DNA from: Selaginella moellendorffii
Taxonomy: Eukaryota > Plantae > Lycopodiophyta
Direction: 5' to 3'
Assembly (NCBI RefSeq): GCF_000143415.4
Contig: NW_003314264.1
Coordinates: 746,014 to 810,013 of the forward strand
DNA: 64,000 nt
Shown in pieces: positions 1-56,043 of this stretch; the stretch's first letter is position 1; each line of letters opens with the position of its first letter. The notes below the pieces were generated by a model, which saw nothing but the letters and a program-made list of their open reading frames with translations, had not been told where the DNA came from and did not search any database. Position numbers and translations under genes: made by a program.

Positions 1-3000
1 TCAATCGGTGTGGAGGACGGCCGGAAGCCCAATGATTTGAAGCTCAACGCCTTGCGTTTCTCGCGGTCTATAGACGACGACGACCTTCTGACAGTGGCTA
101 ATGCTCTTTTACGTGGTGAGGTAGTCTTCAACAAGACCAAAATGACTCCCGGCCATATTGTGACATACGAGGACTTGTGCACGACTCTGAGAGCTCGTGC
201 GCTATTGAAGGATTGGATCTTCGAGCAAGTGGCTGTAGAGAGGGTGAGCATCGATACCACGCAAGAGATGATGGAAGCGCTGGAGTTGTCAAATGAAGAC
301 ATCGACGAGTACGTGAAGGGGGCCCCCAAGTTCATCGATCAGCTGCGGGATGCCACGAAAAGTAAAGCTGAGAAGTTGGATCAGTATCCAAATTTCATTA
401 ATAGGGATGTCGACCGCCGGCTTCAGAAACAGCTCGACCCCGCAGCAGAGGCCTATCGAGAACCTTACTGGGTATACGTGAATTCGGATGAGGATCAAAG
501 GTGGAGGAGCATCGTTTCCCGTGGAGATGAGCAGGTCAAGAACATCTTTTGTGTGATGGACTTCACAAACGAGGAGATCACTCATGCAGACGAAGTCAGC
601 TCCATCATTGACTTAATGGTGGGACTTGCAGAGGTGGAATCTTCAGTCCACTATATGATCTACGAGTTCGAATCCTATCACAAGTTCTGGAAGGCCTTGA
701 ACGAGGTGAAGGCTCGGTTGAAAGGCAAGGAGATGCGGGAGATCCATGGGATAATGGCTAAGAAGAAGATACCGACGAATGTCCTCATCTTCAACCTCCT
801 GACTCAGATTCCTATGGCAGACTCCCCTTCCCCAATCTCAATGGAGAGGTACAATGGATGAGGGATGCTTTTCAAGTCAGGGCCACGTTTTTCTCATCTC
901 GTCGTCTTCGAAGGGTGCAAGAACGTGCAGAAACCATGTTAATACAGTCGGGTGAGGATACGGTCCTAGGTCACGCACTAAAACAGGCTATGGATGTCTT
1001 GTATTTTGAGATGGAGACTCGGCCAGATGATTTTCCCAAGATGGTCCTGGAAGAACAAGCCATCTAGCCTGAGCAGCCTATGGAAGAAATGCAGGAGGGG
1101 GATGAGGAGCCAGAGAAAGATAATGAGCAGGAAGAGCAGAAGGACGAAGAGGAGGACGAAGAAGAGGAGGACGAAGAGGACTTGGATGGTCCTCACAATG
1201 GTGACAATCACAATAATGACGACGACGATGATGACGACGATGGCCAGCCTGAGGTGGCCAAAGAGCAGCAGAGGAAGGTCATACAAGACAAACCATCAGG
1301 TAAATAATAGTACATCCATTCCTAACCTTTTACCATTTCTAACATTGTCCATGTAGGTCGCAGAGCAAATGGTAAGTAGAGATTATTCAGTTGAATTAAG
1401 AAACTCTAGCCTTTAGTGTCGAGGAAGGATAGTGCCAAGCAAGGGTCGAAACGTATGTCCAATCCTTCAGAATCAGCAGTGTGCCCAAGTGATATCGGTC
1501 CTAGTTCCTCAATAGCAGTTGATGGTAAATATAGTATAGTCGATTCAATGTGCTAATGAGTTTGTTTTTAGTAGCACGGGAGGATACCATCTCAATCGAA
1601 GGGAGATATTTGGACATGCATATGGATCCGCCAGTGGACTCTACTTGCCTGCAAGAGTCATCAGAGCTGGTGGAGGCTACTATCCATATCAACGCCAAGC
1701 AAGCTGACCACGCTCCACTTGATGCTGCCCATACCACTGAGTTAATCTTGTCCACGTATCCAACTAACGGTGACCAGGCGCCATTGGACCCGCATGAGGC
1801 CGCCCCAGCCGCCGAGCCGGTTGTATCCTCATTTCCAACGGACTCAACGTGTGCCCAATCGTCTGACTACGTGCCGTTGGAACCTCCCTACACCGCCCCT
1901 GCTGCCTGTTCAGTCATGTCCACTTTGCCAACGGAGGCACCAGCTGAAATGGCGTGTGATCACACGCCATCGAAACCACCGCATGCCACTGTTGAGCCAG
2001 TTGTACCAGAGTCTACAGCTGAAATGGCATGTGCCCACACACCATCGGATGTGATTGACCCCACATTGCAGAGGAGAGTATTTCTGCCCTTCACGTTTCC
2101 TCGACTAAAACCCTCTCAACGACCATCAGGGAGCACCATTCGCTAATATTGTAGATGGTAAAATTGACTTGTACCATTTTTTATGCTGACGCATTTCATT
2201 TCACAGTCACGGTGAAGGTACTGTATCGTTTTTGATCTGAACGGTGTCCTTTTCTCCCATGAGCGTGGCTCGTCCTCGAATGTCACTGCACCCTCCAAAG
2301 CCTGCGGTCGCAAGTTGGTCAAAAGAGACAGATTCACATTAATCACACGGGAGAAATTGCGGGATCTAATAATGACCATGCGACACTTAAAACAAAGGGC
2401 CGAGTTCAATTTGCAATTGGGAGTTTGGACATCCATGATGCGCCACAATGCATTAACGTTGCTACAGATGATGCACGATCAAACGCGAGTAATATTACCA
2501 TTTGACTTTCTCCTAACGCAGGAGGATTGCTTGACTATGGTCCATGTGAGGGGTAGCAAGCCCATCTTCGTCAAGCCAGAGACTGTAGTGATGAACCGAA
2601 CTGCTAGGTCAAGTGAAATCCTCATCATCAATGACTCGCCGATTAAAACTGCAGTGAACACGCACACATATGCAGTGCACCCCATCTCTTGCAGTATGGA
2701 AACTAGGGAGAAGAAACCGTATGTTCTGGGGGACCTTGCAAAACGGCTTGGAGCGATGGTGATAGAGAACCGGCCAGTCCAGGAGGTGGCTGCAGAAATC
2801 AACCAAATGGCAGATGGAACGGTATATCAGAAGCCATTTGATCGGACAGACACTAGTCATCATTTATGGCATGTATATTGTCTAGCCAAGCACTATCCGC
2901 ATCTCCATAATCTGCTCAACCAGATGGGTTCTTCGACCACTGAACATGAGCGTGGACGTATTAGAGAAGAGATGGCATTACTATTGGGTTTAAATCCTGA

Positions 3001-3046
3001 TAGTGTGGAGAGTGATGAAATTCCAAGATTATTGTATAGGCGTTAG
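1..3046 (+). pseudogene. Transposon cargo gene remnant (central region, acidic tract, C-terminal FCP1/SCP-like HAD phosphatase domain)
   Basis: ORFs 10-861, 858-1307, 1550-2146 and 2315-3046 match the cargo gene of the full copy. IVFDLNGVL at 2225-2251 is in frame with GVWTS, TQEDC, KPIFVK and IINDSPIK. Internal deletion and in-frame stops. Confidence 0.75.
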
Positions 3047-3509
3047 AGGCAAAAAATAACAGTCTGAGATGGCATGTATTTATTTAAAAATGTAACTTAT
3101 TATGGCATGGGGTTCCATGCCATTGTATTAATATTAAAAGACAATTCTTTGAGAGGATTTACATTATACTAGAAGTGTTACAGCATGTTATTGGAAGTCT
3201 ACGAAGTTATTTTATTAATAAGGGGAAAGTAAAGATTGAATGGGGACTTGGGCTCCACCTAGACTCGGAGCAATTGAGCCAATATTAAAAGGATGGAAAG
3301 AAATTGGACGACGATGACAAGGAGAAAAGAGAGGTGAAGCAGTGGCAGGGGGAGGAGAAGTGATTGAGTAGACATTTTCTTGATTAAAATAAAATGGCAT
3401 GTGCCTCAATGCAGTTGAATTTTGTTATATTTATATACTATATAAAGGTTTGGAAACCTTATTTTAAAAGTGGGATAATGACAATTCCCACTTTAACGAA
3501 ATAGAGCTT
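1..3509 (-). mobile_element. Terminal part of a second copy of the Sola-like TIR DNA transposon, inverted relative to 13973-24816 and truncated by the window edge
   Basis: Near-identical reverse complement of ~13973-19100. Ends in TIR ...TCCCACTTTAACGAAATAGAGCTT at 3509. Lacks ~1.6 kb present in the other copy (junction 793/794). Confidence 0.9.
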
Positions 3510-7239: not shown

Positions 7240-7755
7240 ACTTAGACTCGGTCTTAGTCTCGGTTTCAAACTCAAACTTGGGTCTCGGTCTCAGTCTCAG
7301 TCTCGATCTCGGTCTTGGTCTTGGTCTTGGTTCCATCTCCATCTCAGACTCCATCTCGGGTCCATCTCAAACTCCATCTTAGACTCCATCTTGGACTCCA
7401 TCTCAGACTCCATCTTAGGTCCATCTTGGACTCCATCTCAAGTCCATCTCGGACTCCATCTCAGACTCCATCTCGGGTCCATCTCGAACTCCATCTCGAA
7501 CTCCATCGTAGGTCCATCTCGGATTCCATCTCAGGTCCATCTCGGACTCCATCTCAGACTCCATCTCAGACTCCATCTCGGACTTCATCTTAGGTCCATC
7601 TCAGACTCCATCTCGGACTCCATCTTGGGTCCATCTTGGGTCCATCTTGGGTCCATCTTGGATCCATCTTGGACTCCATCACAAACTCCATCCCAGACTT
7701 CATCTCAGGTCCATCTTGGACTCCATCTCCAACTCCTTTTTGGACTCCATCTCGA
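7240..7755. repeat. Tandem repeat inside the LTR: 6 bp GTCTYG units, then 11-12 bp GACTCCATCTCR/GGTCCATCTYG units
   Basis: Directly visible; about 35 copies of the CCATCT core between 7333 and 7755. Confidence 0.9.
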
Positions 7756-8757
7756 GTCCTCTTATGTCCCTTTTTTAGAGACTCACTTATTGCTCGCTTC
7801 ATGCTCATTCCTCAAGCACTTTGTTGGGAGTTCCACTCCTGCTCTCAACTTTTCGAGTCGGAGCTTTTAGTCTAAATGTGTTATGTTCATTTGGCTCCCA
7901 TCTCAGCCACTACCACATGGCACACTTTTGGCTCCTCTTTGGGACCTAGGGATTTTGTGTCTCACAACTCCACCACCCATAAACGAAGTTTGATGTCCTC
8001 ATTGAATAATAAACCATTTTATAAAGTAACATTAGCATGTATTACCCTTTTCATTCTTAGCACCAAGCCAATAATCATTGATGGTTTGTCACTGAAGGCT
8101 CTCCATGCCTTTCCTATCCTCTATGAAGTATAGTCTCTCCAACTTAGAGACTTATTAAGCCATTTATGGTGGTCCTTCCCCTTTTCTTTATTTAGTTCAT
8201 GCTAAACTTGTTAGAGACACCTAATCTATTTTGACTATTCATTCAGGAGTAGTCTCGGCCTCTACTAGCATAACCATCGCACTTTGGAACTTTTAATTTT
8301 GATTTCTCAAAGTCAATTTCATAGATGTCTCTGACATCTTGCATTGCACGTGTTGTGCAAATTGCATTTCCCTATCCTAAAAAGTTCCTTACTTAACAAA
8401 ACCATCATCCTCTCTTCTATTTTGTGTTACTCTAGGCACTAAGTTTTACTTTTCCATAATTTGTGCTAAGGTTGTCTACAACTTTATCATTTGGCTACCT
8501 TGCCACTCCCTCCCTTAGAACTTTCACCTTTGCCAAATTGGAGCATTTGGGAATCCATCCACAAAAACATATTTTCTTTCCCATGATTTGTTAACATCCA
8601 ACACATAAGTGTTCCTTGCTCAATTTTGTTGTTTGGATTTCTTCCAATGATTTTCATGGCCCAAACTTGGCCACTAGTCATTTGCTCCTATTCATTAATT
8701 GTTGCACTAAATAACATAGGATCATTATCTCCATCCTTGATGTATTCTTTTGGTTCC

Positions 8758-13968: not shown

Positions 13969-14394
13969 GGAAAAGCTCTATTTCGTTAAAGTGGGAATTG
14001 TCATTATCCCACTTGTAGAATAAGGTTTCCAAACCTTTATATAGTATATAAATATAATAGAATTCAACTGCATTGAGGCACATGCCATTTTATTTTAAAC
14101 AAGAAAATGTCTACTCAATCACTTCTCCTCCCCCTGCCACTGCTTCACCTCTCTCTTCTCCTTGTCATCGTCGTCCAATTTCTTTCCATCCTTTTAATAT
14201 TGGCTCAGTTGCTCCGAGTCTAGGTGGAGCCCAAGTCCCCATTCAATCTTTACTTTCCCCTTATCAATAAAACAACTTCGTAGACTTCCAATAACATGCT
14301 GTAACACTTCTAGTATAATGCAAATCCTCTCAAAGAATTGTCTTTTAATATTAATACAATGGCATGGAACCCCATGCCATAATAAGTTACATTT

Positions 14395-17300
14395 TTAAAT
14401 AAATACATGCCATCTCAGACTGTTAGTTTTTTGCCTCCAACGCCTATACAATAATTTTGGAATTTCATCACTCTCCACACTATCAGGATTTAAACCCAAT
14501 AGTAATGCCATCTCTTCTCTAATACGTCCATGCTCATGTTCAGTGGTCGAAGAACCCATCCGGTTGAGCAGATTATGGAGATGCGGATAGTGCTTGGCTA
14601 GACAATATACATGCCATAAATGATGACTGGTGTTTGTCCGATCAAATGGCTTTTGATATACCGTTCCATCTGCCATTTGGTTGATTTCTGCAGCCACCTC
14701 CTAGACTGGCCGGTTCTCTATCACCATCGCTCCAAGCTGTTTTGCAAGGTCCCCCAGAACATACCCTAGTTTCCATAGGGGTGCACTGCATATGTGTGCG
14801 TGTTCGCTGTAGTTTTAATCGGCGAGTCATCGATGATGAGGATTTCACTTGACCTAGCAGTCCGGTTCATCACTACAGCCTCTGGCTTGACGAAGATGGG
14901 CTTGCTACCCCTCACATGGACCATAGTCAAGCAATCCTCCTGCGTTAGGAGAAAGTCAAATGGTAATATTACTCGCGTTTGATCGTGCATCATCTGTAGC
15001 AACGTTAATGCATTGTGGCGCATCATGGATGTCCAAACTCCCAATTGCAAATTGAACCCGGCCTTCTGTTTTAAGTGTCGCATGGTCATTATTAGATCCT
15101 GCAGTTTCTCCCGTGTGATTAATGTGAATCTGTCTCTTTTGACCAACTTGCGACCGCAGGCTTTGGAGAGTGCAGTGACATTCGAGGACAAGCCACGCTC
15201 ATGGGAGAAAAGGACACTGTTCAGATCAAAAACGATACAGTACCTTCACCGTGACTCTGAAATGAAATGCGTCAGCATAAAAAATGGTACAAGTCAATTT
15301 TACCATCTACAATATTAGTGAATGGTGCTCCCGATGGTCGTTGAGAGGGTTTTGGTCGAGGAAACGTGAAGGCTGAAATACTCTCCTCTGCAATGTGGGG
15401 TCAATCGCATCCGATGGCGTGTGGGCACATGCCATTTCAGCTGTAGACTCTGGTACAACTGGCTTAACAGTGGCATGGGGTGGTTCCGATGGCGTGTGAT
15501 CACACGCCATTTCAGCTGGTGCCTTCGTTGGCAAAGTGGACATGACCGAACAGGCAGCAGGGGCGGTGTAGGGAGGTTCCAACGGCGCGTAGTCAGACGA
15601 TTGGGCACACGTTGAGTCTGTTGGATATGAGGATACGACCGGCTCGGCGGCTGGGGCGGCCTCATGCGGGTCCAATGGCGCCTGGTCACCATCAGTTGGA
15701 TACGTGGACAAGATTAACTCAGTGGTATGGGCAGCATCAAGTGGAGCGTGGTCAGCTTGCTTGGCATTGATATGGATAGTAGCCTCCACCAGCTCTGATG
15801 ACTCTTGCAGGCAAGTAGAGTGCATTGGCGGATCCATATGCATGTCCAAATATCTCCCTTCGATTGAGATGGTATCCTCCCATGCTACTAAAAACAAACT
15901 CATTAGCACATTGAATCAACTATACTATATTTACCATCAACTGCTATTGAGGAACTAGGACCGATATCACTTGGGCGCACTGCTGATTCTGAAGGATTGG
16001 ACATACGTTTCGACCTTTGCTTGGCACTATCCTTCCTCGACACTAAAGGCTAGAGTTTGTATCTTAATTCAACTGAATAATCTCTACTTACCATTTGCTC
16101 TGCGACCTACATGGACAATGTTAGAAATGGTAGAAAGTTAGGAATGGATGTACTATTATTTACCTGATGGTTTGTCTTGTATGACCTTCCTCCGCTGCTC
16201 TTTAGCCACCTCAGGCTGGCCATCGTCATCATCATTGTCGTCATCGTTATTGTGATCGTCACCATTGTGAGGACCATCAAAGTCCTCTTCGTCCTCCTCT
16301 TCTTCGTCCTCCTCTTCTTTGTCCTCCTCTTCGTCCTTCTGCTCTTCCTGCTCATTATCTTTCTCTGGCTCCTCATCCCCCTCCTGCATTTCTTCCATAG
16401 GCTGCTCAGGCTGGATGGCTTGTTCTTCCAGGACCATCTTGGGAAAATCATCTGGCCGAGTCTCCATCTCAAAATACAAGACATCCATAGCCTGTTTTAG
16501 TGTGTGACCTAGGACCGTATCCTCACCCGACTGTCTTAACATGGTTTCTGCACGTTCTTGCACCCTTCGAAGACGACGAGATGAGAAAAACGTGGCCCTG
16601 ACTTGAAAAGCATCCCTCATCCATTGTACCTCTCCATTGAGATTGGGGAAGGGGAGTCCGCCATAGGAATCTGAGTCAGGAGGTGGTGACTGGCTGCTTT
16701 CACTCAGCCCTTGATCTGCAATGAATGGCATGAGCACACACGCCATAACCGCGAGGCATTACCTATCATCTTTTCGTTGCCCTTCTTCCTTTTCGAATCA
16801 AAGGCCTCTGATCCCGACGACTGTCCAACGTGCTTTCGCTTTTTATGACCACTGTCAATTTGAGCTTGATCTGCAAGAAATGGCATGAGGACCCACGCAA
16901 TAACCATGACGCTTTACTTCCCGTCCTTGGAGGCTCTGTCGTGCCTTCTGCATCCTCAGGTGCCTGCTCCTCAATTCCCTTTCTCTTTCGTTTCTTATGC
17001 GCCAGTTCTACAGAAATAGCATGAGGACATACGCGATAAGCACACAAATGCTTTTACCCTTCCTCCTCTGCCCTAGTCGGTTGTCCATCTCTTTGTCTAC
17101 AGCGTCTGAAAGCTGTTTTGCAGGTAGCCTAATTCGAGGTTCATGACGTCTCCTTGGCACTTGAACTGTATACTATTGCATCAACACATGCAACATCCCA
17201 CAATATTTTTAAGTTACCTTTCATAAAGTTTTCCATTGGTTCAACTCGTTCCCCTGAAATACAAACTTAGATAAGTGCATGGGGCCATATGTCATGATCG

Positions 17301-19892
17301 TACCTGTTTCGGAACTCTCCTTATCACTCTCCAAGGCCTCCCCCTCCTCCACTGGAGGCACGTTGTTCCGTTCGATTTCCTCGACTCGATCTGCAAGAAC
17401 ATTAGTTAATTGCGTGGGGCCACACGCCATCAAACCTTCAGGTTCTTGTCGTGAGGTCTGCACTACTTGCCCTAGTCTCTTTGGAATTTGAGCTGCAAGA
17501 AGCAATGGCATGAGAATTCACGTATAACAAAAATGATTGGTACCTCTTGTCCGTTGTACTTGGCTGGTGCTTGCCTGTTTTGCCTTTGAAGAAGTGTCTC
17601 CTGCAAGGAATGGCATGAGACCACACGCCATTGCAAATATAATTTGTACCTCCTTTTTTCCTATTGCTTGTCTGTTTGTCCTTCTTCGATGCGCCACCAG
17701 TGCGCTTTTCAGTCCTCGTGTCTGAATATTCACAACGATCTATAATCAAAATGGCATGAGGCCTCACGTGACCTTACCTTGTGCAGGTTGTGAGCTCGGC
17801 CCAACATGGGTATCTTCAACAGTAGCTGTTAACGCCGTTTCAGCATCTGGGGGTGGCCACGCTCCTACATACAGAGCTTGTGAGATAACATTTAAACTTA
17901 AAGTGCGTACTCACCAGGTTCGCAGAGAAGATACTGTTTTTCTTTGGCAACTGTAATTATATGCTCCATTGAAGTCACCTCTTCAATGGAGTTTGTCACC
18001 GCAACACACAGGACACCCTTGAGTAGTGCGGCTCGAAAGAATAATCCGCCGCAATTGTACTCGACAACGCATTTGCCCTTGGAGTCGGAAGCAGGTGACC
18101 CACCCGCTATTGCGTTGAAGACCCAGCTGAGCATTTCCCATGCTGCACCTGGAGCTTTCTTTGGATTCGAAAGTTCCATAGCCGTCTTCAGTTCCTCAAG
18201 CACGGGTAAATTGACTTCCCTCAGATCAATTCGATCGGTCTTGTCGAACGAAGCTGGGAAGTCACTCCAGTCCCACTCTGCTGCAGGACCAATAACAAGG
18301 GTGAGTGTGAAGATGCGGACATTCGTCGGTATCTTCTTCTTAGCCATTATCCCATGGATCTCCCGCATCTCCTTGCCTTTCAACCAAGCCTTCACCTCGT
18401 TCAAGGCCTTCTAGAACTTGTGATAGGATTCGAACTCGTAGATCATATAGTGGACTGAAGATTCCACCTCCGCAAGTCCCACCATTAAGTCAATGATGGA
18501 GCTGACTTTGTCTGCATGAGTGATCTCCTCGTTTGTGAAGTCCATCACACAAAAGATGTTCTTGACCTGCTCATCTCCACGGGAAACGATGCTCCTCCAC
18601 CTTTGATCCTCATCTGAATTCACGTATACCCGGTAAGGTTCTCGATAGGCCTCTGCTGCGGGGTCGAGCTGTTTCTGAAGCTGGCGGTCGACATCCCTCT
18701 TAATGAAATTTGGATACTGATCCAACTTCTCAGCTTTACTTTTCGTGGCATCCCGCAGCAGATCGATGAACTTGGGGGCCCCTGTCACGTACTTGTCGAT
18801 GTCTTCATTTGACAACTCCAGCTCTTCCATCATCTCTTGCGTGGTGTCGATGCTCACCCTCTCCATGGCCACTTGCTTGAAGATCCAATCCTTCAATAGC
18901 GCACGAGCTCTCAGAGTCGTGCACAAGTCCTCGTATGTCACAATATGGCCAGGAGTCATTTTGGTCTTGTTGAAAACTACCTCACCACGTAGAAGAGCAT
19001 TAGCCACTGTCAGAAGGTCGTTGTTATCTAGAGACCGCGAGAAACGCAAGGTGTTGAGCTTCAAATCATTGGGCTTCCGGCCGTCCTCCACACCGATTGA
19101 GTTTAGCAACTCCCTGTCATGGTACCTCCTTAGCACATCTACCCATTTGTCAAAAACAACTTTTGTCGCGAGTAGAATGTTATGGATGCTGAGTGTGTCA
19201 TTGACCCCTAGTGTTTTCGAGAGAAGACTCAAGAATTCCTGCAATGGAAATGGCGTGAGGCCGCATGCTATGCCACATGCAACGAGGCTTACCTGCCAGG
19301 CACTAGTTGCTAGTGCACGTCCTTGTCCTAGTTTTTGTGGCTTCTTCAGTTGAACCCAGAGCTTCCGTGTTCGTGCCAATGTCTCGTGCAGACCCGATTT
19401 GTAGCACGTTTCTTGCTTGACATTCTGCGCGTGGGAGATGTATATGATAGATCGGAGGGGCGAGTTGCCTTTTATCAGGTGGACAACTCTTGTCTTGAAG
19501 ACTTTCTTCACCTCCTCACCCACCATAATATCCACAACTATCTCTTGCATCGCCAAGCTAGAATGCTGCCCGGAGACGGCATAGAACCGGATGTTCTGAT
19601 CGTCCAACACCTTCCTATTGATCAAGTCTGGAAACCTCGTCTCGCCCTTCATTGTTCGGTAGTAGGGGATCACGTCTGCGATGTCGGGTGTTACTGGACT
19701 TCCCAGCATCTTCTACTTCAGTTTCTCCACCCACTCATCAGATACTAGCCTGTGGTACGACAGCAAAGTCTAGAAGCTACTCAGTTTGAAATTTGTCAGA
19801 GGAATCATAAGATCTGGTTTGTCAGAGGATTTGATGTGACGTTCAAGCGTGTGTTATTTTTGAATTCTCGAACTCATTCCTAGGTCTATCAT
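14395..19892 (-). pseudogene. Multi-exon transposon cargo gene: ParB-like, MTase-like, acidic/low-complexity and FCP1-like phosphatase regions
   Basis: Same-frame ORFs 19709-18411 and 18404-17898 are split by a TGG>TAG change (TGG in the other copy). Many GT-AG micro-introns. Motifs FYAVSGQHS, VVEYNCGG and DLNSVL...IIDDSPIK. Confidence 0.7.
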
Positions 19893-20363
19893 TTTTGTGC
19901 GCCGTGTTCTTGGTTCCGCTAAGCGCAGTGAGCGCTGCTTGTGTAAGCGGCGTTGTGAGCTGTGGTTTATGCATCTATGAGCGGTTGCGGCATTGCGAGC
20001 GCCATTGCGAGCGGCAGTTTATGCGAGTGGCAGTTTGTGCGAGCGGCACTACGAGCAGTTGCGGTGGTGCGAGCGGCGCTACGGTACCACTAATGGTATG
20101 AGGGCTCATGCCATCTTGGGGCTTGCAAGTTCATCACTAGCATATTGCCAATAGTTTCTTTACTTGCCTATAGCTGTGTGTTTATCAAGATGGCATGAGG
20201 CCTCATGCCAATTTTGTGAATGCGAAATTTCACGTGGGTGTCAATAGCATATTTGAATAATGGCATATGGCCTCATGCTATTGAGGTTGTTTGGTATGTT
20301 ATGATTTAGGCCATTCTCCAATCATTTTTTGTATGGTCTTAACTTCTTTTCTGCACTTTCAGA

Positions 20364-23189
20364 ATGGCCTCCGCAAGTGCGACGCATGTTCCCTCCGTGG
20401 ATCTTAAGAACCGTGCTACATGGATTCAGGCAAAGGTGTTTCTAAACAACCCCGAGGGGGAGGTGGTAGCTGAGGGCTTAGCCACAGTTGTCGATCCAAG
20501 AGATGCGGTTGCTAATCAAGAATTGGGCTACGATGATATTGGAGTTGCGATTTTAGAGGTTGTTGACACAGAAGAAAACAGTCTGACTATTAGAAGCATT
20601 GTGCGGTGGAAATTGAGGCACTTAGTGTTTGAGAATGTGAAGGATTCACACTCAAACACCACTACAACTGATGACAGAACATCTCTTCATGGGAAAAGAA
20701 AGTACACCTTCCTAAAGCGCAGCCAAAGGGATCTGAGCAACAAACCGAAAAGGCAGAAAATGGCGATGGAGGTTCGAATTGTCTCGACAGTTGCTTGTTG
20801 CAAGAGGAGGTGCTGTCAACATGCTGATTGGGATGCTATTGAAGAGGAGAGAGCAAGATACAAGACATTGTCCTAGAAGGCAACTCGCAATTTTGTGTAT
20901 GAGGCATTACGGTCATCTGTTGATGCTTCAGAACATCAGGTGGGGGGGATGGTCTTCCAGAGGGGTTTGGTCTACATGAAGGCATGGAGAATCATTTATG
21001 GAGTCCCTCAAACCACATTCTACAGAATCAAAACTAAGTTCGAGGAACAAAGGGTTCAACAGGCAGTCCATGGGAACAACGGTACTCACAAAACCAGGGG
21101 TCATGTTGTATATGGAGAGGCAATCTTCAAGAGGTTTGTCGAGACATGTAGCGAGCAGCAACCACATAAAACCCGCCTCTTGGAAGATGGAACTCGAGAC
21201 ACCCAACAAGTTCTCCCTTCCATGTATACCAAGGGGGCCATATTGGAAGATGTGAATCGGGAACTCCAGAGTAATGGCTACAAGAAGCTGAGCCAATCTA
21301 GATTTAGTAGATTGTGGAGCAACAGGTTCAGGGATGTGAGTATAGGAAAGTACTCCAGCTTTTCAAAGTGTGACGAGTGCATTGCTATCAAAATGGCTTT
21401 GTCGAAGAATTCTTGCATCGCTCAAGAGTGAGAGACGTTGGTTAGAAGGCGGCTCGACCACAACATCGAGCAGAGAAGCTGCAGGACTGCATATTATCAT
21501 AACAAGATTCTCTCCATGGAGAGACCTGACTCTTACCTCTGCATCATCCACGACAAAATGGACCAGAAAAAGACGTGCTTACCTCGACTCAATCCTGCCC
21601 CCAAGGCAATCTCTTCATCCATGCAGCTGCCTATGTCTCTGTTTGGCATAATCGCTCATGGGCATGGTGCCCAGAACTATGGGAACTTCTTTGTACCTCT
21701 ATGGGGTGGCGGGGGTGCAAACATGATGATTGCGTCCCTAGCAAAACACTTAAGGTCTCTGCAAAGTGCGCAGACTGAGCTGAATGGCCAACCCTTGCAT
21801 AAGGCCCTTGTCAATCGAACCCCATACAGGGTTCAGCTGGAGGAGGAGGAAAGGCTTGCAGTATTGCATGGGGCCCCATGCCATCCCAGTGAATATGTTG
21901 GCCGTCAGATTGTAGAGTTATTAGGTGAGGCCTCATGCCATTCCGACGAGGCTGGTCACCCGGTGAATGCACAGCCTCATCCAAACAAAGCAGAATCTCA
22001 AGGAAGTTCTTGCGGCCGATGTGGCCTTCCACCCCATCTTCTGCTCCAAACAGACAATGCTGGCAGTGAGAACAAAAACATGTACGTCTTCGCGTACTTG
22101 GCGATGCTTGTTGCCAAAGGCATATTTGAAACGGTTACACTTGGCTTTCTCATGGTTGGGCACACTCATGAAGACGTCGATGCCATGTTCAGTCACCTGG
22201 CAGAGTCCCTCCGGCGATCCAATGTCCTCACCCTCCTACAACTCTACGATGAATTCCAAAATTGCATCAAAGGCACTGTTGAAGCTGCACTTGTGACAGA
22301 GGTTCCAGACTTTAAGGGGTTTGTAAGAGGCTACATTAGAAACGGATTTGAAACGCTGTTTGGCCACTCCAAGCCTCTTCAGTTTCATTTCAGCATGCGT
22401 GACGATGCCCCAATGATGAGGTACAAGATGAGAGAATGGGACACAGTGTGGCTGCCAGTGGACGGCATTGAACTCTTCAAGAGAGATCCCATAACTGGGG
22501 AACCTATGATTCCTTAGGGTTCCCCACGGCCGATGCACCCGGATGGACTCAAAGACCAGGAAAGTATAGTGGCCGGGATTAGACAGCATATTGCCTTCTG
22601 GAAGAGGGGGTTGGTGTTTGGTGGAGAATCCTATTTTCAGAGGTGCAAGCCTTTGCTCGAATACTGGGAGAAGATTATATCTGCTATCCAAAATGGGCCG
22701 GTTGTATATGAAGAATTGGAAGAGTCCTTTTGGCCAGAACCCAGAGCACCAGATAGTAGCAGAACAATGTCCTCTGGAAATGCAGTGACAAATAACGATG
22801 TTGAGGATTACTATTGTGGGCCGAGGAACAAGAAGCTGGATTCAGCATTCAATCCAGTACAGGTTTGCAAAGGAATGGTCGTGCTTGTCAGACCCAGTAA
22901 TAAAAAACAAATGATATAGGTGGGGCGCTGCATCACTGATGCAGAGGAGGACGCGGAAACTAACTCCTTCAATGTAACTGTGGAGTGGTTCAAGCCAAGT
23001 TCCGGATATATGAAGGATTGCCTAGAAAAGAGATGGGTGCTGAATCCAAGGGATCCCAATATGAGCATATCGGTGGATAATGTTGTGCATGGTTGGATGT
23101 GGAAGCAGAGTGCCACCATCACCTTGCCAGACCATGCAAGAGATGCAGCAAGAGCATTCATAACCCGGGTTCAAGGTGAGATTCATTAA
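20364..23189 (+). pseudogene. Sola-like DDD transposase (DUF7869-type core), ~940 codons with four in-frame stops
   Basis: Five consecutive ORFs share one frame. Motifs SKCDEC, IIHDKMDQKK, LQTDNAGSENKN and FLMVGHTHEDVDAMFS. Confidence 0.85.
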
Positions 23190-23902
23190 TATTCCTTTAC
23201 TAAGTTTCTAATGTATTTTATTTCAAGGTGAACAATCCGAATCTGAATCAGAGGAGGCGTGATGGCATGTGGCCTTACGCCATTCCTAGGTGAGATGATA
23301 CAAATAACAAGTATAAATTCTTAGTTGTTCTAGCAAATCTTACTTAAAGTTCAAGGTGAACAAGCCAAATATGAATTCATCGGATTGTTATAACAAATTG
23401 CGAGGTGATGGCATGAGGCAATACGCCATTTGAGAGTGGTAGCCATTCCTATATGAGGTGAGTGAAATATTTATTAGAAATACCTCATTCAATTGTGCAC
23501 TTCTAAGTCTTGGTCCACTCAGTACTGTTTGCATGTTTCTATTTTAATTCTTTCTCTAAAATGTTATTTAGCATGTGGCTTCATGCCATTGCTCTCCACA
23601 ATCATGCATTGAATTTTTCTATCCTTGCATAATACTTCTCCATATATATAGCATGTGCGCACATGTGATATGGTTCATTAGGCCTGATATAGTGTGTGAG
23701 GTAAAACAAAGATGATGTGACATATGCATTTACCAATCACACGTGCATAAATCTAATAATATGGCGTGTGGCCCATATTAATGGCACATAAACCCATATT
23801 GTGGGCTTACGTGCTTTATGTACCATCATTCCCTTGCAGCGTGTGTGTTGGTTTCCTTTTATAACACAACGAACTCCATATTTTAGGGTGAAGAGCGTTC
23901 TC

Positions 23903-24160
23903 ATGGCAAGCACAAAATCTGTAAGTGAGGCAGAAAAGGAGATGGAGAAGGAGATAGGTGAAGATGTAGAATATATAAGTCTTCCAAACTCCCCGTACTA
24001 TACTCCAGGTGATCATTTTTCTGAACAAACGGCAACATTAACAACTATCGAGAACGCCCTAGTAACGTCAAAGACAACAATCCAAAGCAAAACAACTGAC
24101 CCGGAGAAGGATGATAGTACCGCTGAGAGTACCAAAAAGGAGGTGTCCACTAGCGCTTAG
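23903..24160 (+). CDS. Small acidic/Thr-rich hypothetical ORF inside the DNA transposon
   Basis: Open frame MASTKSVSEAEKEMEKE...; no recognisable domain; may be a downstream exon. Confidence 0.3.
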   Translation: MASTKSVSEAEKEMEKEIGEDVEYISLPNSPYYTPGDHFSEQTATLTTIENALVTSKTTIQSKTTDPEKDDSTAESTKKEVSTSA

Positions 24161-24820
24161 GCTTATAATGGCGTGTGCCCTCATGCCATTTACTTGATCA
24201 CCAAATACCTTTTTCCCTTTGCACTAGTATATCTTAATACCGGTCTGAGAAATAGAATGGCATGTGCCCTCAGGCCTTTTACTAAATCACCTTTGAAATA
24301 AATGCAAGCCTCTATGTCGTAAAAAAAAGGTACTAGAGAAATTCCTTAATAACATGAATGTTATTTAGTTTCATGAAAATACACTAAGGGTCAAATGAGT
24401 TAAATGACTTCTCCAGACTAGCAATGCCTCTTGCTACACCTTCACAATTAGATTCGTTAGAAAAAGATAACATTGAATAATATCTAAATGTTCTCACCAT
24501 TAAGTTATATGTCTGGCTAATAGGAATGACGTTCATCTTGGAAAGCTCACCACACGCTCAATGAACAAATAGTGTGTGTGCGCATGCCATCGCTCTTCTT
24601 TAGCTTCAGATTCGGCTTGTTCACCTTGACAATGAGATTTATTATACAACCAAATGGACTCAGTCTGGACACAAAGTCACCGTGCTAGTCACCATGCCCT
24701 AGATATGTCTAGCCCCTGGACAAAAAACATATAATTTCACGTCATTTTTAAATACTTGAAAATTTGTACCTAGTCCCATTTTACTGAATAAATCCCACTT
24801 TAACGAAATAGAGCTTGGAA

Positions 24821-29020: not shown

Positions 29021-29303
29021 TAGACTCCATCTCGAATTCCATTTTAGGTCCATTTTGGACTCTATCTTAAACTTCTTCTTGGACTCTATCTTGGGTCCCT
29101 CTTGTGTCCCTTTTTTAGAGATTCATTTATTGTTTGCTTCGTGCTTATTCTTCGAACACTCCGTTGGGAGTTCCACTTCTGCTCTTGACTTTTCGAATTG
29201 GAGATTTTAGTCCAAATGTGTTACACTCATTTGGCTCCTACTTCAACCACTACATAGCACCCTTTTAGCTCCTTTTTGGGGCCTAGGGATTTTATGTCTC
29301 ACA

Positions 29304-36517: not shown

Positions 36518-39129
36518 ATGGATGGAAGCGGCAACTCGCTCGCCTCGGGGCCGGAGGGGCGGAGCAAGCGCGTCGCCTACTTCTACGACCCCGAGGTAGG
36601 GAACTACTACTACGGCCAGGGCCACCCAATGAAGCCGCATAGGATCCGGATGACCCATTCCCTCCTCGTCCACTATGGCATTCACAACAAGCTCGAGGTT
36701 CTCAAGCCCCTCCCCGCCAAGGACCGGGACCTCTGCCGCTTCCACGCCGACGACTACGTCGCCTTCCTCCGGGTCATCACTCCCGAGACGCAGCACGAGC
36801 ACTTGCGCGCGCTCAAACGATTCAATGTGGGCGAGGACTGCCCGGTTTTCGATGGCTTGTACTCGTTTTGCCAGACTTATGCCGGTGGATCCGTCGGTGG
36901 CGCTGTCAAGCTCAACCATGGTCACTCGGACATTGCGGTGAATTGGTCTGGTGGATTGCATCACGCGAAGAAGTGCGAGGCCTCGGGGTTTTGCTACGTC
37001 AACGACATTGTTCTTGCCATCCTGGAGCTTCTCAAGTACCATGCTGTAAGTTTTTCGTGGTTTTCTCTGTCGAGAGAGAGTTTTATAGCTACAAAATTCT
37101 TTCCTATGCTTGTTTGTGTTTTTCTTTGTTCTCTTTCGGCAGTAGTTCTCTCGCTGTTGCAAAATACCTTGTTTTTTCCTTACTCCTAAAGCTGCTACAA
37201 GCTTCTCTTGAGTTCTCATCCTTCAATGCTGCTACAAAGTTTCTCTCGTACTTGCGCTTGTTTTCACTTTGTTGCATAGCCACAAAGTTCTCATGGCTCT
37301 TTCTTGTTTCTCTTTCCAGCGAGTTTTGTACATTGACATTGATATACACCACGGAGATGGTGTCGAGGAGGCCTTTTACACCACAGACCGTGTCATGACC
37401 GTCTCCTTCCACAAGTTCGGGGACTACTTCCCCGGAACCGGGGACGTGAGGGACATGGGACACGCCAAAGGGAAATACTATTCTCTCAACGTCCCGCTCA
37501 ACGATGGCATCGACGATGAGAGCTACCATTCTTTGTTCAAGCCGATCATCACCAAAGTGATGGAGGTTTTCCAGCCGGGGGCTGTCGTGTTGCAGTGTGG
37601 AGCCGACTCGCTGTCCGGGGACCGGCTTGGATGCTTCAACCTGTCGATCAAAGGCCACGCTCAGTGTGTTAAGTTCATGCGGTCTTTTAACGTTCCGTTG
37701 CTGTTGCTCGGAGGCGGAGGCTACACAATCCGCAACGTTGCTCGGTGCTGGTGTTACGAGGTTTGTACGACTTGAGAAACAAGCTCTCTTTTACTTTGGT
37801 TTCTTGATTAGAACAACACCTTGCCTTGCAGACTGCTGTTGCTGTAGGCGTGGAGCTAGAGGATAAAATGCCATACAACGAGTATTACGAGTACTTTGGC
37901 CCGGATTACACGCTCCACGTTACTCCGAGCAACATGGAGAATCAAAACTCGGCTCAGTACCTGGAGTCCATAAGGTCTGATTTCATTTTTTACTTCTCTG
38001 TCCTTGAGTACGATGTCTTTGTATTCACTGAGTGCACAGGAATCGACTCCTGGAGAACTTATCGAATTTACAGCATGTACCAAGCGTACCATTCCAGGAG
38101 AGACCACCTGATACTGATCTTCCAGAAGAGGTCTCCCTCTCTGTGGCTTCTACATGGTGAAAAGCTGAGAAGTTGTTTATAACTGTAGGAGGAGGAAGAC
38201 CTCGATACGCGTGAGAAAGGTCGGGCTTACTCAGACTCGGAGTCTGAGGAAGACGAGCCTCGCAGGAGTCGTCACCAAAGTCCTAACGACGCTGCCATAT
38301 CCAGGTTTGCAAACAAACAAAGCCGAGCATCGTCATACTTTCGTGCTCTCTTTCTTTATCTTTCTTTATCTTGCGTTGAGCTAATATCAAGTGTCCGGCT
38401 GCGTCTTTTACAGGCGACAATCACCCTCGGCAAGAGATGACCGCATCAAAAAGGAAAAAGAAGAACTTATGGTACGAGGACAATGAATTTTCTTATTTCC
38501 TTGCTTCTGACGGGACTATTATATCTGTGTGAAGGACGAAGGAAGTGATATCGACGGGGATCTACCCAAGGCTCAGCAAGAACCTCAAGATGACCAGGTT
38601 TATATACCTCTCTCTAGATTCTATGGCTGAAAAACCACCGAAAACAACAACAAAAACCATTTTTTGGCAGCCGACTGCGATGGAAACCGATGCCAAAGCC
38701 GAGGAGAAGTGCTCGTCCTTGCTCCCGGATGCACCCTCGGCCCCCCTGGCCTCGTCCGCGGACACAGCGCACGAACCAAACGAGCAGAGCACGAGCAACA
38801 CAAATTGGCAACTTGTGACGACCTCCACTGCTGCTACGGCCGCAGCGATGAATGCTCGAAGTCCATTAGCTCCTCCCGCTCTTAATCAAGCTCCCCCGAG
38901 CTCGACAGCCATCGCCACTGCTGCTTGGACGCCTCCAACTTCTGCCACAGTCGTAGCTCGGCTGCCTCGATTCTCCGCGAGCTCTGGAGCTCCAGTTGCT
39001 GCCACTGTCACTGCCACCGCCACGGTTACCGCTGTTACGAGCTCCACAGTGGCGAATTCTCCAGCTCCAGCGCCAGTTCCAGCGGCTCTAGCTCGTGTGA
39101 CCGAAGCTCCCACACCAATGACTCCTTAA
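36518..39129 (+). CDS. HDA19: Class I (RPD3) histone deacetylase, HDA19-like, multi-exon
   Basis: [92 protein letters not shown]. The 3' exons are less certain. Confidence 0.93.
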
Positions 39130-40324
39130 AGGTAAGCTCTCGAAAAAACTCTTCTTTGCTCTAACACAAGTTTTCTCTTTTTAGAAAGCCATCGAGCTAA
39201 CAGTACTTATAGGATTTGGATCATCCACAAGAGGAGAATTTACGAGCCAAGCAAGCTCTTGTTCTCTAAAGCTTTGTAAGCTAAATTTTTTCTCTCTATT
39301 ATGCTCGAATCTTTCTAAGTGGACACTGCGCGAAAGAGAGAAGTGTCTCGTCCACGAGGTAGGTAGCTTGTCAATTCGATCATCCATTTGGGATGATATG
39401 AATTTGGGCCATGCGGCGGTACGGCGTTGGCCATGGTCCACACTCAAGAAAAAAATATTATAAGATTCATATATTCTGATGCGCGTACGGCCTTTTTCGA
39501 TCCCCCACTGTCACGCCGAGATTATGGCCGCCGGGAACTTGCCGGCATATTCAAAACGGCCGGTGGGCTTTCTTTTCCCGCCGCAAAGCGCATATTCCTT
39601 TCACTCCACGTTGGCCATTACACCGCGCAGTAAGAACATGCCACGTAGAATTTACAGCTGGCCTCCACTCTCCCTCTAATTTTCTTTGTTGTTAAGAATC
39701 TCCCATTGCATTAACGAAGCGCGCGTGTGCGTCGAGTGTTTAAAGTTTTTAACGCTTTGCTACTATAGGCGCCCAAAACATTTTACCGGATCAAGTACTA
39801 GAAGGAGCCTTTAGTACTTTAATCCAGGTAAAAGTAGCAAACTGGAAAATGGCGGGAAACCACGAGGTAAGAAAAATTCCTCCCACCCCCCCAACGGGGC
39901 TCCCGGACCCCAAATGGCCGATTAAATCCGCCGCAATGCCATCTCAACCACCCGCCTAGTTTTAACCTTCCCACGAATTTTACTCGAACTGGTCCACGCC
40001 GAATTTCCCTTGTAAGCCGGCTGCATGGCACGCAACCAGCAAGCCTTAACTGTGCATTTCTCACCGCGGGGTAGCGTCTGCCGAAAAGTAACGTATAGAC
40101 CGGCTGGTCCGCCCGGCCTTAAGCTTCTTAAAGCGAAACACAATGCGCGGGCGCCTGGCCTAGAAGTTCTTTTCGTTTGGCAAGCAAAAGCACGAGAGCG
40201 TATGTATCTCTATAGGCCGGTTGCATGGCCGCGTTTTGCCCGGGCTATACCTTCTAATATTCGGTGAATATTCACGAGGGCTTGGGTGGAAGCTTTAGCG
40301 TGGGTGTAGAAACCCACGCCTACG

Positions 40325-40350
40325 GTGTGTGTGTGTGTGTGTGTGTGTGT
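40325..40350. repeat. (GT)n microsatellite
   Basis: Directly visible. Confidence 0.95.
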
Positions 40351-40758
40351 TGTGTTTTCTTTCTTTCTTTGTGGTACCTATATGCGCGCTGTGCTTTCTG
40401 CGTGTTTGGAGCTATGGCGCCGTGACGAGGAGGTTAAAGCGATCGATCGATCCAGGCTAACGCAGCGATCCATTGATCGGCGCATTGGACCGCGGATTGG
40501 AATTCGTCGGTAAGCTGTGGATTCCCGTCTTTCTCGGAATTTGCGCTCTCTCCAGCTCAAGATCTGCGGGGAAAGCCCCAAATCTCCGTAATCTTCCCTG
40601 CATTGCGCTCGATCTCTCCTCTCCTCACGATCTTGGCCTCCAATTCCGATCCCCGCCGCCAAGCCGCCAATCCCGCAATGCGCGGATTGAGAAATCTTTG
40701 CAAGAAGCTGCGCTAATCGATGGGAATTCACTCCTTGGCTGTGTGCTCGCAGGCGCTA

Positions 40759-41754
40759 ATGCTGGAGGCGGACAGCGGCCCACCGGGCTTGTTTCCTCCC
40801 GGCTGCTTTGCTCCTCACAGCGGGGACGAGAGCGGGGAGGAGGAGGAGCTCTCGGTTCTTCCCCGGCACACCAAGGTCATTGTGACTGGAAACAACCGCA
40901 CGAAATCCGTGCTCGTCGGGCTACACGGCATCGTGAAGAAGGCCGTGGGACTTGGCGGCTGGCATTGGCTGGTAAGCAAAACAAATCAATGCTTTCCTTG
41001 CTTTGCATTCCTCTCCGGTTTGATTGATCACGGCGGCTTTTCAAATTCCATCTTGCTTCTTCTTCTTGGAAACAGAGCTCGCGATCGCGCGCGATGGATT
41101 CCGAGCTCCAGCAAGCATTTTTTCTTCTTCTTGTTGCTATTGTTTTGTTTTATTGATCTCGATGCCCCATGGCGGAATCTAATCGAATTGCTCTTGGCAG
41201 GTCCTCACGAACGGGGCCGAAGTAAAACTCCAGCGCAATGCGCTGAGCGTGATCGAAGCGCCCACTGGACAGGAAGAAGACGACGATATCGACAACCCAT
41301 TCTCGAATGAAACAACACCCGGTATGGCTTCCCTGAAATCAAACTCGCGCTTTTCTCTCTTGATGGCTGACTTCCCGCGCTGCCCAGATGATTTCCCAAG
41401 AACATTCAAGCCCAGAGTCCGGCCCCAAAAGCCCGCGGCGCACGAGATCACGCGCATGGCCGATGAATCCAAGCGCAGCTCGGAGAGACGGTGCGAATTC
41501 GGCCTCAAGACGTCCCAGTCGCAATGTGTGCCGGTAAGCAAGCATGGAATTCTTTACATATAGCAGCTCAGTTTCCTCTAGCAGGTTTTTCTTTCTGAAA
41601 CCAAAACGTTTCTTCCTCCTTTCTTAGGTTGTGGACCTTGGTAAACTCGATACGGCAGCGCTAAGGAGATATCGGCGACACTTCAAGCTCGTAAGCCCAT
41701 CTATCTACTTTTGACTTCATGGGAGAGAAACGAAAGAAAGAGAGATGCATGTTT

Positions 41755-41797
<43 letters not shown>

Positions 41798-42065
41798 TGT
41801 CTAAAACACCCGTCTTCTCAGTTTGATGTAGGCCCGAATTCCTCGAAAGAACAGCTACTGCAAGCAGTGTCAAGGCACTTCGTGGGACAAGTAAGTCGCT
41901 CCTCGTCCCGTGACCCCATTTCATTTCATTCCCCTCGTAAAGACGATAGCTTTGCGTTTAAACAAGCAAACTTATCCCCCTTGTGTGGTGGTGGCGTGGC
42001 AGCAACTGGACGAGCTGCAGGTGATCACAGGATTTGTGCAAGCTGCAAAACGGCCGCGAATGTGA
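40759..42065 (+). CDS. SAP30 function-related (AFR1/AFR2-like) Sin3-HDAC complex subunit
   Basis: EEELSVLPRHTKVIVTGNNRTKSVLVGL.GIVKKAVGLGGWHWLVL.NG.EVKLQRNALSVIE. C-terminal VDLGKLDTAALRRY...SKEQLLQAVSRHF...LDELQVITGFVQAAKR (SAP30 Sin3-binding type). Confidence 0.88.
41758..41792. repeat. Intronic (GA)n microsatellite
   Basis: Directly visible. Confidence 0.95.
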
Positions 42066-42577
42066 GCTGCGCTGTGCTGCCGCTGCTCCCTGCTGCTAGG
42101 CTGCTACCTTCGACGAGAGACGAAGATTTGCGCGACCAAACTTTTGCCAGGCATAAAAACTTGTAAGATATCTACAACCCTCCCCCGTCCTCTTTTTTCC
42201 TCGTTTTTTTTTTCTCCTCCGTCCTCCTTTCCTTGTTCTGGTCGTCACTGTCCCATTCCTAGTAATTCTCGTATGGGAGAAACGCTGCTGCCGCTGGCTC
42301 TTCTGTCCCCTTGCTTCTCGCTCGCTCGCCTGATCGCCTTCCCCCCTATAACTTATGCTCTTGTTCGCCACGGGGGGTGCTTAACTTCTAACCAAATGTG
42401 TCTAAACTGTACAGAGGTGCCAGAAAAGAATGAGAAAAAAAGAAATTTCTAAACACCACGTCTTTGATCGATCGATAGCGATGAATGATCTTAGAACCTC
42501 GCCGTGAATCATGAAAGAGGAAAATTCTTTGGTGTGGATGGATCGTGGAAGGATGACTTTGACTCACACTAGCACTA

Positions 42578-44669
<2,092 letters not shown>

Positions 44670-44955
44670 CTAGAAAATCTCGAGAGAGAAGCGAAGGGAC
44701 GAGAAGAAGAGGCGCGGCGCTCTTGGCGGGCGAGCAAAGCGCCAATGCAGCCACAAGAAGAAAGAGAGGAAGGTTTAAGCCGAGAAGAAGAAGAGATATT
44801 AACCTAAACGAGCTTTTAAGCGACGAGATTCGAGACCGCGACCTCCTGTGGTAGGTGGCGTGGCGCAGTGAGTCGTTTCAGCCAATGGAAAACCATCTAG
44901 TCAAACATTGAGAGCCAAAATTGTCCACCATGGTCTCCACATTTTTGACAATAGC

Positions 44956-47004: not shown

Positions 47005-47149
47005 ACGATGAACGAGGGCCGTTGATGTGCCCGGCAGGAGGAGCGATCCCAGCCGTTGGGTTCTGGAACGAGCTCTCTGGTTTGAACGATGAACGAGGGC
47101 CGTTGATGTGCCCGGCAGGAGGAGCGATCCCAGCCGTTGGGTTCTGGAA
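46988..47149. repeat. Perfect 81 bp tandem duplication across the PPR stop and EF-P start
   Basis: CGAGCTCTCTGGTTTGAACG...GGGTTCTGGAA at 46988 and 47069. Confidence 0.95.
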
Positions 47150-48205: not shown

Positions 48206-48375
48206 GAGTAAGTTGTCCTCTGCGATCCAAATTTTGTAGGAGCTGTGTTAGTGGATCGCTTCCATGGCCTCCTCAACAAAGAAGTCCAGTTTTTGGAGAA
48301 ATGTAGCAAGGAAGATCAGGTATCGATCGCATCTTTTTTGAATTTAAGGATATTCCTGTCTCCCGCGCTTCTACT

Positions 48376-50337: not shown

Positions 50338-50435
50338 GCATTGGGAATATTCTCCAGGTCCAGCTCAAAAAGAATCTTTCAATGACCTTTTAATGTGACG
50401 TTTCTTGCAGTATGGGAATTAGGGCTTAATGCGCG

Positions 50436-55757: not shown

Positions 55758-56043
55758 ATGCTTTATTTCGTTAAAGTGGAACTTTTCATTATCCCACTTA
55801 TGGTGTGTGGCCACATGCTATTTTTATAACAACAATAAAAAATTGAAGTTTTAACTTTATAATTTATAAATTAAAAACTTTTCATATGATTTTGTGTTAT
55901 AATATTGTGAAATATAAAAATAAATTAAAAAACTGATAGAAATATTAATAAATATTAATTAAGTACTAAGAAATGGCATGTGGACACATGCTAATTAATG
56001 TCCCACTTTACTGAATAAGTTCCACTTTAACGAAATAAAGCAT
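55758..56043. mobile_element. 286 bp MITE of the Sola-like family
   Basis: 27 bp perfect TIR ATGCTTTATTTCGTTAAAGTGGAACTT. Both subterminal regions match the two ends of 13973-24816. AT-rich core. Flanks CTTCA/ATTCA. Confidence 0.88.

Follow-up and report, generated by a model that had tools for sequence, protein, structure and literature searches.

What does it mean when many small introns of a single gene carry the same palindrome? The question is raised by a decayed DNA transposon of Selaginella moellendorffii, found in a window of 64,000 nucleotides (the whole stretch of DNA that was analysed; contig NW_003314264.1, positions 746,014 to 810,013). The element carries a transposase gene on the plus strand and, opposite to it, a cargo gene on the minus strand, both located within the inverted ends. 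A preliminary description of this DNA had reported about ten micro-introns in the cargo gene, each with one copy of the palindrome; the observation is largely real but overstated. Our analysis suggests, with moderate confidence, that the palindrome is a double-stranded DNA docking site for a dimeric protein encoded by the element, most likely the ParB-like cargo protein, and that in copies close to the splice acceptor the downstream half doubles as the branch site. The element, its cargo gene and the predicted cargo introns are as follows (negative numbers give the position of the branch adenine relative to the intron end):

13973..24816: whole DNA transposon, decayed copy, 10,844 bp, recognised by its ends, target duplication and genes
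14400..19889, minus strand: cargo gene, predicted to have 15 introns; in this copy its frame is broken once and interrupted by several stops
19239..19292, minus strand: intron, phase 0; palindrome 19250-19271, whose arm CTCAC has its A at -18
17865..17914, minus strand: added intron, phase 1; no palindrome; CTCAC at -17; boundaries are one of several frame-restoring choices
17740..17777, minus strand: intron, phase 1; palindrome 17751-17772; CTCAT at -18
17601..17649, minus strand: intron, phase 1; palindrome 17610-17631; CTCAT at -16
17493..17543, minus strand: intron, phase 1; half palindrome 17505-17526; CTCAT at -19
17391..17435, minus strand: intron, phase 1; palindrome 17409-17430 lies upstream, with TTAAC at -16 as a separate branch motif
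17254..17303, minus strand: intron, phase 1; weak palindrome 17274-17295 lies upstream, with CTTAT at -19 as a separate branch motif
17166..17217, minus strand: intron, phase 1; no scoring palindrome; TTGAT at -16
17008..17057, minus strand: intron, phase 1; palindrome 17016-17037; CTCAT at -15
16871..16917, minus strand: intron, phase 1; palindrome 16880-16901; CTCAT at -16
16716..16762, minus strand: intron, phase 1; palindrome 16725-16746; CTCAT at -16; 81% identical to 16871-16917
16107-16163, 16043-16091, 15888-15934 and 15257-15303, minus strand: four downstream introns; no palindrome; branch motif at -15/-16 in three

The ten minus-strand GT-AG introns of 38-54 nt that had been proposed were all recovered with identical boundaries. 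Removal of these ten alone does not give the continuous open reading frame (ORF) that had been named as a check; the frame is open across the cluster when intron 17865-17914 and the four downstream introns are removed as well. With all 15 introns removed, the stretch between 18410 and about 15320 is free of stops; without splicing, the three frames of 16164-17864 contain 23, 31 and 12. GT-AG ends, a branch motif and a frame regained on removal are features of spliceosomal U2 introns, and the predicted cargo introns show them. A generic splice rule, drawn up after the introns had been seen, gave 12 candidates on the minus strand, all of them among the 15, and 7 on the plus strand. As read, 13 of the 15 introns are in phase 1, and a 14th would be so too if a one-base difference in run X1 is the state of the family; the eight exons between the nine cluster introns all have lengths of 3n. 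In three raw RNA runs (about 12% of each), 0, 0 and 4 reads fell on the element of 11 kb, with none across a joint, numbers too small to bear on splicing. Contigs of run X1 span one predicted intron and part of another in unspliced form; these contigs may be DNA. The cargo introns are well predicted and look real, and would be spliced in transcripts of the gene.

The size of these introns does not set them apart, and the idea of a special class of micro-introns was dropped. In three neighbouring host genes, 7 of 18 modelled introns are 38-52 nt long (one acceptor uncertain). The element's introns are shorter on average (median 49 against 57.5 nt, n=18 for the host); their length is ordinary for the host.

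The palindrome has the 22-bp consensus ATGGCRTG-N6-CAYGCCAT. It was scored with a symmetric 22-position matrix built from 17 element copies, so that scores inside the element are partly circular. At a threshold of at least 10 bits, the element (10,844 bp) gave 24 matches, where a shuffled one gave 0.11 on average; with one half copy the number is 25. No match was obtained in the 49,350 bp of the window outside the element, its second copy and a miniature inverted-repeat transposable element (MITE), and none of the host introns within the window contains the palindrome. Apart from the cargo introns, the features bearing copies of the palindrome, together with the second copy of the element, are:

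15414..15510: two palindromes in a cargo exon, inside a 75-bp tandem duplication
20093..20281: three palindromes between the divergent gene starts, at 20093, 20190 and 20260
23262..24590: seven palindromes in the right arm, at 23262, 23408, 23568, 23648, 24168, 24257 and 24569
14067..14380: two palindromes in the left arm, at 14067 and 14359
20364..23186, plus strand: transposase gene, DUF7869 domain (E 1.8e-42), four in-frame stops; palindromes at 21863 and 21920 in coding sequence
1..3509, plus strand: second element copy, truncated where the window begins; identity about 97%, with about 16685-18302 missing
55758..56043: gene-less MITE, 286 bp, AT-rich, inverted ends related to those of the element; palindromes at 55800 and 55973

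Among the ten introns first described, eight hold a full copy (16-33 bits); 17493-17543 has the downstream half only (7.1 bits) and 17166-17217 scores -2.3, so that the palindrome is common to most of them and not to each. None of the five added introns contains it, which makes 9 of the 15 cargo introns when the half copy is counted. Sixteen of the 25 copies lie outside the cargo introns. Non-coding parts hold 21 of the 25 (p 4e-8), and within the cargo gene 9 of 11 copies fall inside the 733 intron bases of its 5,490 (binomial p 6e-7). The suggestion that introns allow binding sites to be packed through a coding region agrees with this last figure and with the family-specific palindromes of related elements; four of the 25 copies are, however, in coding sequence, and introns are thus not needed for it. 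Along the element the gap between copies never exceeds 1.6 kb. Under the generic splice rule, several palindromes also lie in possible introns outside the cargo gene (20090-20173, 23228-23289 and 24143-24290), with CTTAC near the acceptor at 23289.

The arms of the palindrome are strongly constrained: all 50 arms have T at position 7, and 47 of the 50 have C at position 5; at position 6 there is A in 32 arms and G in 17. The pattern at positions 5 and 6 appears to differ from the symmetric decay expected of CpG deamination alone.

The placement of the palindrome within the introns was compared with that of the branch signal, for which YTNAY is the consensus. The copy ends 8-12 nt before the intron end in seven introns, close to the 9 nt that had been described as usual, and 18 nt (17391-17435) and 20 nt (17254-17303) before it in two others. 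A YTNAY with its A at -15 to -19 is present in 14 of the 15 cargo introns, including 7 of the 8 that lack an acceptor-near palindrome (shuffle mean 1.3, p 0.0002). This branch window was chosen after the fact; for a window of -12 to -25 the enrichment in the same eight introns has a p of 0.007. Five of the 18 host introns, and four of the seven shortest, have YTNAY at -15 to -19.

In all seven acceptor-near copies the downstream arm reads CTCAY, which puts its A at -15 to -19. YTNAY is matched by the downstream arm in 7 of 7 cases, against 2 of 7 for the mirror arm (Fisher p 0.02) and 11 of 36 for arms elsewhere (p 0.001). The two copies placed upstream have CCCAY arms, which do not fit YTNAY, and each of their introns has a separate branch motif. 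The fixed spot of the palindrome, about 9 nt before the acceptor, is thus explained by the coincidence of its downstream arm with the position of the branch motif. The simplest reading is that a free position of the palindrome is fixed to T where the palindrome must also serve as a branch site. This overlap of a candidate binding site with a branch motif appears to be what is new here; a literature search at the level of listings returned no description of a transposon palindrome overlapping branch sites.

These findings suggest the following sequence of events. A dimeric protein of the element would dock on palindromes spread along the whole transposon, and in the acceptor-near intron copies the downstream half would act as branch site too. 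Some intron-plus-exon units were probably multiplied by local duplication within a disordered part of the protein, which would tolerate it because the exons are in phase 1 and of length 3n; selection would then have kept the motif while the remaining intron bases diverged. An intron of 45-55 nt would accommodate a 22-bp GC-rich site best by overlap with the branch signal. One sequence would apparently stand under two codes, serving in DNA for protein binding and in RNA for the choice of branch site, and in this way a compact element could add sites to a coding region at little cost.

Three regions of the cargo protein were annotated:

19293..19853, minus strand: N-terminal domain, ParB/DUF3723-like, a lead only, from Atlas features on 19293-19706
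17901..18410, minus strand: N4/N6 DNA methylase-like segment, a lead only (Atlas PF01555 0.91, family on 54% of members)
14772..15242, minus strand: C-terminal NIF/FCP1-type phosphatase domain (Pfam PF03031, E 2.7e-6, above cut-off)

For 19293-19706 Atlas gave DUF3723 at 0.93 and ParB_N at 0.90, the latter at rank 22 and as a family on 35% of members. In the alignment the catalytic motifs of the methylase look degenerate when compared with the consensus. Structure prediction was of limited help: the single-sequence model of the N-terminal part (predicted local distance difference test, pLDDT, 32) was too poor for use, and a model of the cargo from four sequences reached a mean pLDDT of 50.7, with the methylase-like part below 50. 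With this last model Foldseek returned nothing at E 0.001 and VIA-align nothing above Z 5.1, blanks that exclude no fold. Word-index searches with two cargo pieces found no relatives among 6,038 and 152 candidates, and a phage search with protein P0041 gave no matches. A full HMMER search with the cargo found two relatives, one of them a protein of S. moellendorffii with 26% identity. This annotated protein (P0036, 451 aa) matches the middle region of the cargo and lacks the disordered and NIF parts; it is possibly a domesticated or related cargo gene.

Bacterial ParB loads on a short palindrome; in the cargo protein no CTP-binding (cytidine triphosphate) motif, helix-turn-helix or clamp was demonstrated. 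We tentatively propose, as a possibility and in stronger form than the docking site itself, a land-plant transposon with ParB/parS-like self-recognition, in which the cargo would load on branch-site palindromes and bring methylase-like and RNA-polymerase-phosphatase-like domains to the element, each family having its own palindrome. To our knowledge few transposons recognise and re-programme their own DNA. The present element offers a 22-bp sequence as candidate site, a protein that may bind it and related families whose palindromes differ, and specificity is therefore testable by swapping.

Comparison with described systems places the element among several partial likenesses. One is with Sola1-1_Ec32 of Ectocarpus, in which an accessory gene on the opposite strand has predicted ParB-like and N4/N6 methylase domains and its protein is proposed to bind and modify its own element (PMC12477816). 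The two share a large DNA transposon and a gene opposite the transposase, and the domain pair would be the same too if the Atlas leads hold; here the host is a land plant, a NIF phosphatase domain is added and the methylase looks degenerate. The passages of that report on Sola1-1_Ec32 have no dispersed intron palindromes of the kind present in our element (PMC12477816). In Plavaka elements of red algae the ParB-like PAG3 is found beside arrays of inverted repeats, with a PF01555 methylase in the same cassette (10.1101/2025.02.11.637652). PAG2/PAG3 resemble the present case in the combination of inverted repeats with a ParB-like accessory protein and PF01555, the latter two being putative here. 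They differ in that, according to the relevant passages, the repeats are arrayed in tandem beside PAG3, each domain has a gene to itself and an EnSpm-type transposase is present; the palindromes of our element are single, scattered and overlap branch motifs. For such algal elements self-recognition by a ParB-like accessory protein has been raised, without a test in the passages concerned.

In the Arabidopsis element VANDAL21, introns and further non-coding stretches contain motifs to which VANC21 binds (PMC5735166). The likeness consists in short family-specific motifs concentrated in introns, intergenic and terminal regions, and in an accessory gene with a variable, repeat-linked exon-intron structure, as far as the sections of that paper on VANC describe it (PMC5735166). 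The VANC motifs are, by the same account, non-palindromic words of 8-9 bp in tandem repeats of a Mutator-like element, and their binding is proven, whereas the site described here is a candidate known from its sequence (PMC5735166). VANC proteins have DUF1985/DUF287, neither of which is matched by the scanned cargo pieces, and the transposase of the present element belongs to DUF7869. TnpA of Spm is a further element-encoded protein acting on clustered family-specific motifs; its sites are given, in the part of the preprint that treats them, as terminal and non-palindromic, and most sites here are internal (10.64898/2026.08.24.746577). ParB-fold proteins include the anti-silencer VirB, and ParB fused to an N6_N4 methylase is mentioned for phages in the pertinent sections of two reports (PMC10653881, PMC12704722).

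By analogy, the element would work like VANC and the algal accessory systems and yet is not a VANDAL; the best reading is that a self-recognition system of a kind already proposed occurs here in a land-plant form. The least supported part of this proposal is that the bound protein may mark or de-silence its own element, as does VANC, which brings about demethylation.

Relatives of the transposase were collected for comparison. The transposase alignment gave 209 metagenome matches, of which 80 loci were fetched; after a screen for at least 4 kb, 12 were examined for long palindromes. Seven of the 12 contain a different long palindrome, of four kinds (chosen by eye) with 1-7 copies each, and each kind is confined to its own loci among the 80. 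The palindrome of our window occurs in none of the 80 loci. In one locus (L003) all seven copies are located upstream of the transposase frame. A Pfam scan of 54 of 126 long ORFs from 20 related loci found no ParB, methylase or NIF family.

Several observations weigh against the proposed role of the palindrome and of the cargo. The ParB and methylase calls come from one kind of evidence, language-model features, and sequence searches of Pfam, PHROGs, NCBIfam and PDB gave no supporting match. In the wide window of -10 to -35 the branch-motif enrichment in the eight introns is not significant (p 0.12). The seven acceptor-near introns have 12 mismatches in the upstream arms against 1 in the downstream arms, so that some intron copies are no longer full dyads. 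This copy of the element is decayed, and its present conservation mirrors past selection. In the second copy about 1.6 kb is gone, comprising ten introns with their exons and the C-terminal part of the methylase-like segment. Finally, no relative of the cargo was detected in the 80 loci, which are mostly short contigs; these loci therefore do not link the palindromes to this cargo, and it may be the transposase that binds.

Binding by the transposase and not by the cargo, for transposition or for self-activation, is the rival explanation that survives best, and we consider it rather unlikely. The MITE retains two copies of the palindrome, one just inside each end; in related loci palindromes precede the transposase and no relative of the cargo was recognised; and a preprint describes transposases as sequence-specific activators, at least in the portion dealing with this activity (10.64898/2026.08.24.746577). 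Against it, most copies are 1-5 kb from the ends of the element, and most of the related contigs are too short to show a cargo gene.

Low probability is given to the second rival, that intron-plus-exon units were duplicated in tandem or converted, with the shared motif as a by-product, and that the internal copies are unselected. The exons are symmetric, of phase 1 and length 3n. Introns 16871 and 16716 are both 47 nt long, 81% identical and followed by the same six bases, and are alike outside the motif as well (the best of 15 tests, p 0.002). A likeness outside the motif is also seen between introns 17601 and 17493 (p 0.009), with a 57-nt exon after each. However, 12 of the 15 intron pairs show no similarity outside the motif, and 16 copies lie outside the cargo introns altogether. 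The exons align at chance level only (p<0.05 in 2 of 45 DNA and 5 of 45 peptide pairs, the best being 0.003 uncorrected) and the motif is placed alike in the phase-0 intron 19239-19292, at a distance of 1.3 kb. Duplication of the whole cluster was rejected as a full explanation. Duplication of exon-intron units, which had been named as the alternative that could explain the shared motif away, probably accounts for two neighbouring pairs, and not for the whole pattern: local intron-plus-exon duplication is likely for these pairs, the region being charged and of low complexity. The best fit seems to be duplication with later selection on the motif.

The third rival, very unlikely in our view, is that the palindrome acts in RNA, its hairpin hiding the branch adenine and throttling the splicing of the cargo transcript. 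A hairpin near the 3' splice site had been foreseen, and pairing is indeed predicted: the branch A is paired with a probability of 0.92-1.0 in five of the seven acceptor-near introns, and the pair of positions 6 and 17 is possible, with G-U allowed, in 8 of 9 intron copies in sense against 3 of 9 in antisense orientation. The T of the branch motif accounts for part of the G-U bias, the majority of copies lie outside introns, and any palindrome folds on paper. No compensatory covariation was detected at three variable pairs in 27 copies (p 0.90, 0.20 and 0.17), and the position of the motif is better explained by overlap with the branch site.

Introners are near-identical introns over their full length, with inverted ends or target duplications at their borders. 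That the introns are copies of a small introner-like mobile unit inserted repeatedly into the cargo gene, as the preliminary description had offered, agrees with their similar lengths, shared motif and shared 3' ends and was rejected as most improbable, since it fails the tests of identity (mean pairwise 64%, range 49-81%, in the seven acceptor-near introns with the 22-mer included) and of intron ends (no inverted ends, 1-5 of 8 terminal bases complementary, boundary repeats of 0-5 nt and no clear target duplications). As to spread, within this window the 49,350 bp that do not belong to the element family are free of the motif, and five motif-free introns have the same size and phase.

The remaining features concern the transposon itself:

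13973..13996, plus strand: left terminal inverted repeat, 24/24 bases matching the right end
24793..24816, minus strand: right terminal inverted repeat, 24 bp, perfect
13969..13972, plus strand: left copy of the 4-bp target duplication GGAA; right copy at 24817-24820

Inverted ends, target duplication and transposase identify a cut-and-paste transposon with terminal inverted repeats. A 4-bp target duplication is a feature of the Sola superfamily, with which the 4-bp GGAA duplication agrees; GingerRoot, with a 6-bp target duplication and an integrase-like transposase, was put aside. The DUF7869 transposase has 35 relatives, the named ones occurring in Riccia, a sea anemone and Branchiostoma; its profile matched no PDB sequence. 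The flanks of the element appear to be two halves of a Gypsy-type pol region, and one frame runs open across the insertion site.

Differences between the second copy and the main one are mostly transitions. The second copy retains the four downstream cargo introns, which points to a deletion of DNA and not to intron loss. No clean target duplication was found at the flanks of the MITE.

On the plus strand 3' of the transposase, 23820-24160 contains an open frame of about 120 codons, with palindromes and possible splice sites on its flanks, which may represent additional exons or a third gene. In the related loci, dispersed palindromes of 18-20 bp were noted at L003:641-1567, L004:632-1556 and L045:585-3083; in L003 a second recurring word follows many palindromes after about 15 bases. 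Beside another DUF7869 transposase, L040:7122-9248 is a long frame with a weak match to Tudor_5 (E 2.9e-7, just under the cut-off).

Elsewhere in the window, 7292-7780 is an array of 11-12-bp units with a shorter relative at 29022-29116, 21 kb away; both arrays sit inside repeats resembling the ends of long terminal repeat retrotransposons. Compact host genes with short introns occupy 36519-52800: a histone deacetylase (PF00850), two pentatricopeptide repeat (PPR) genes and, presumably, an EF-P-like and an AAA-ATPase-like gene, which we name from their motifs.

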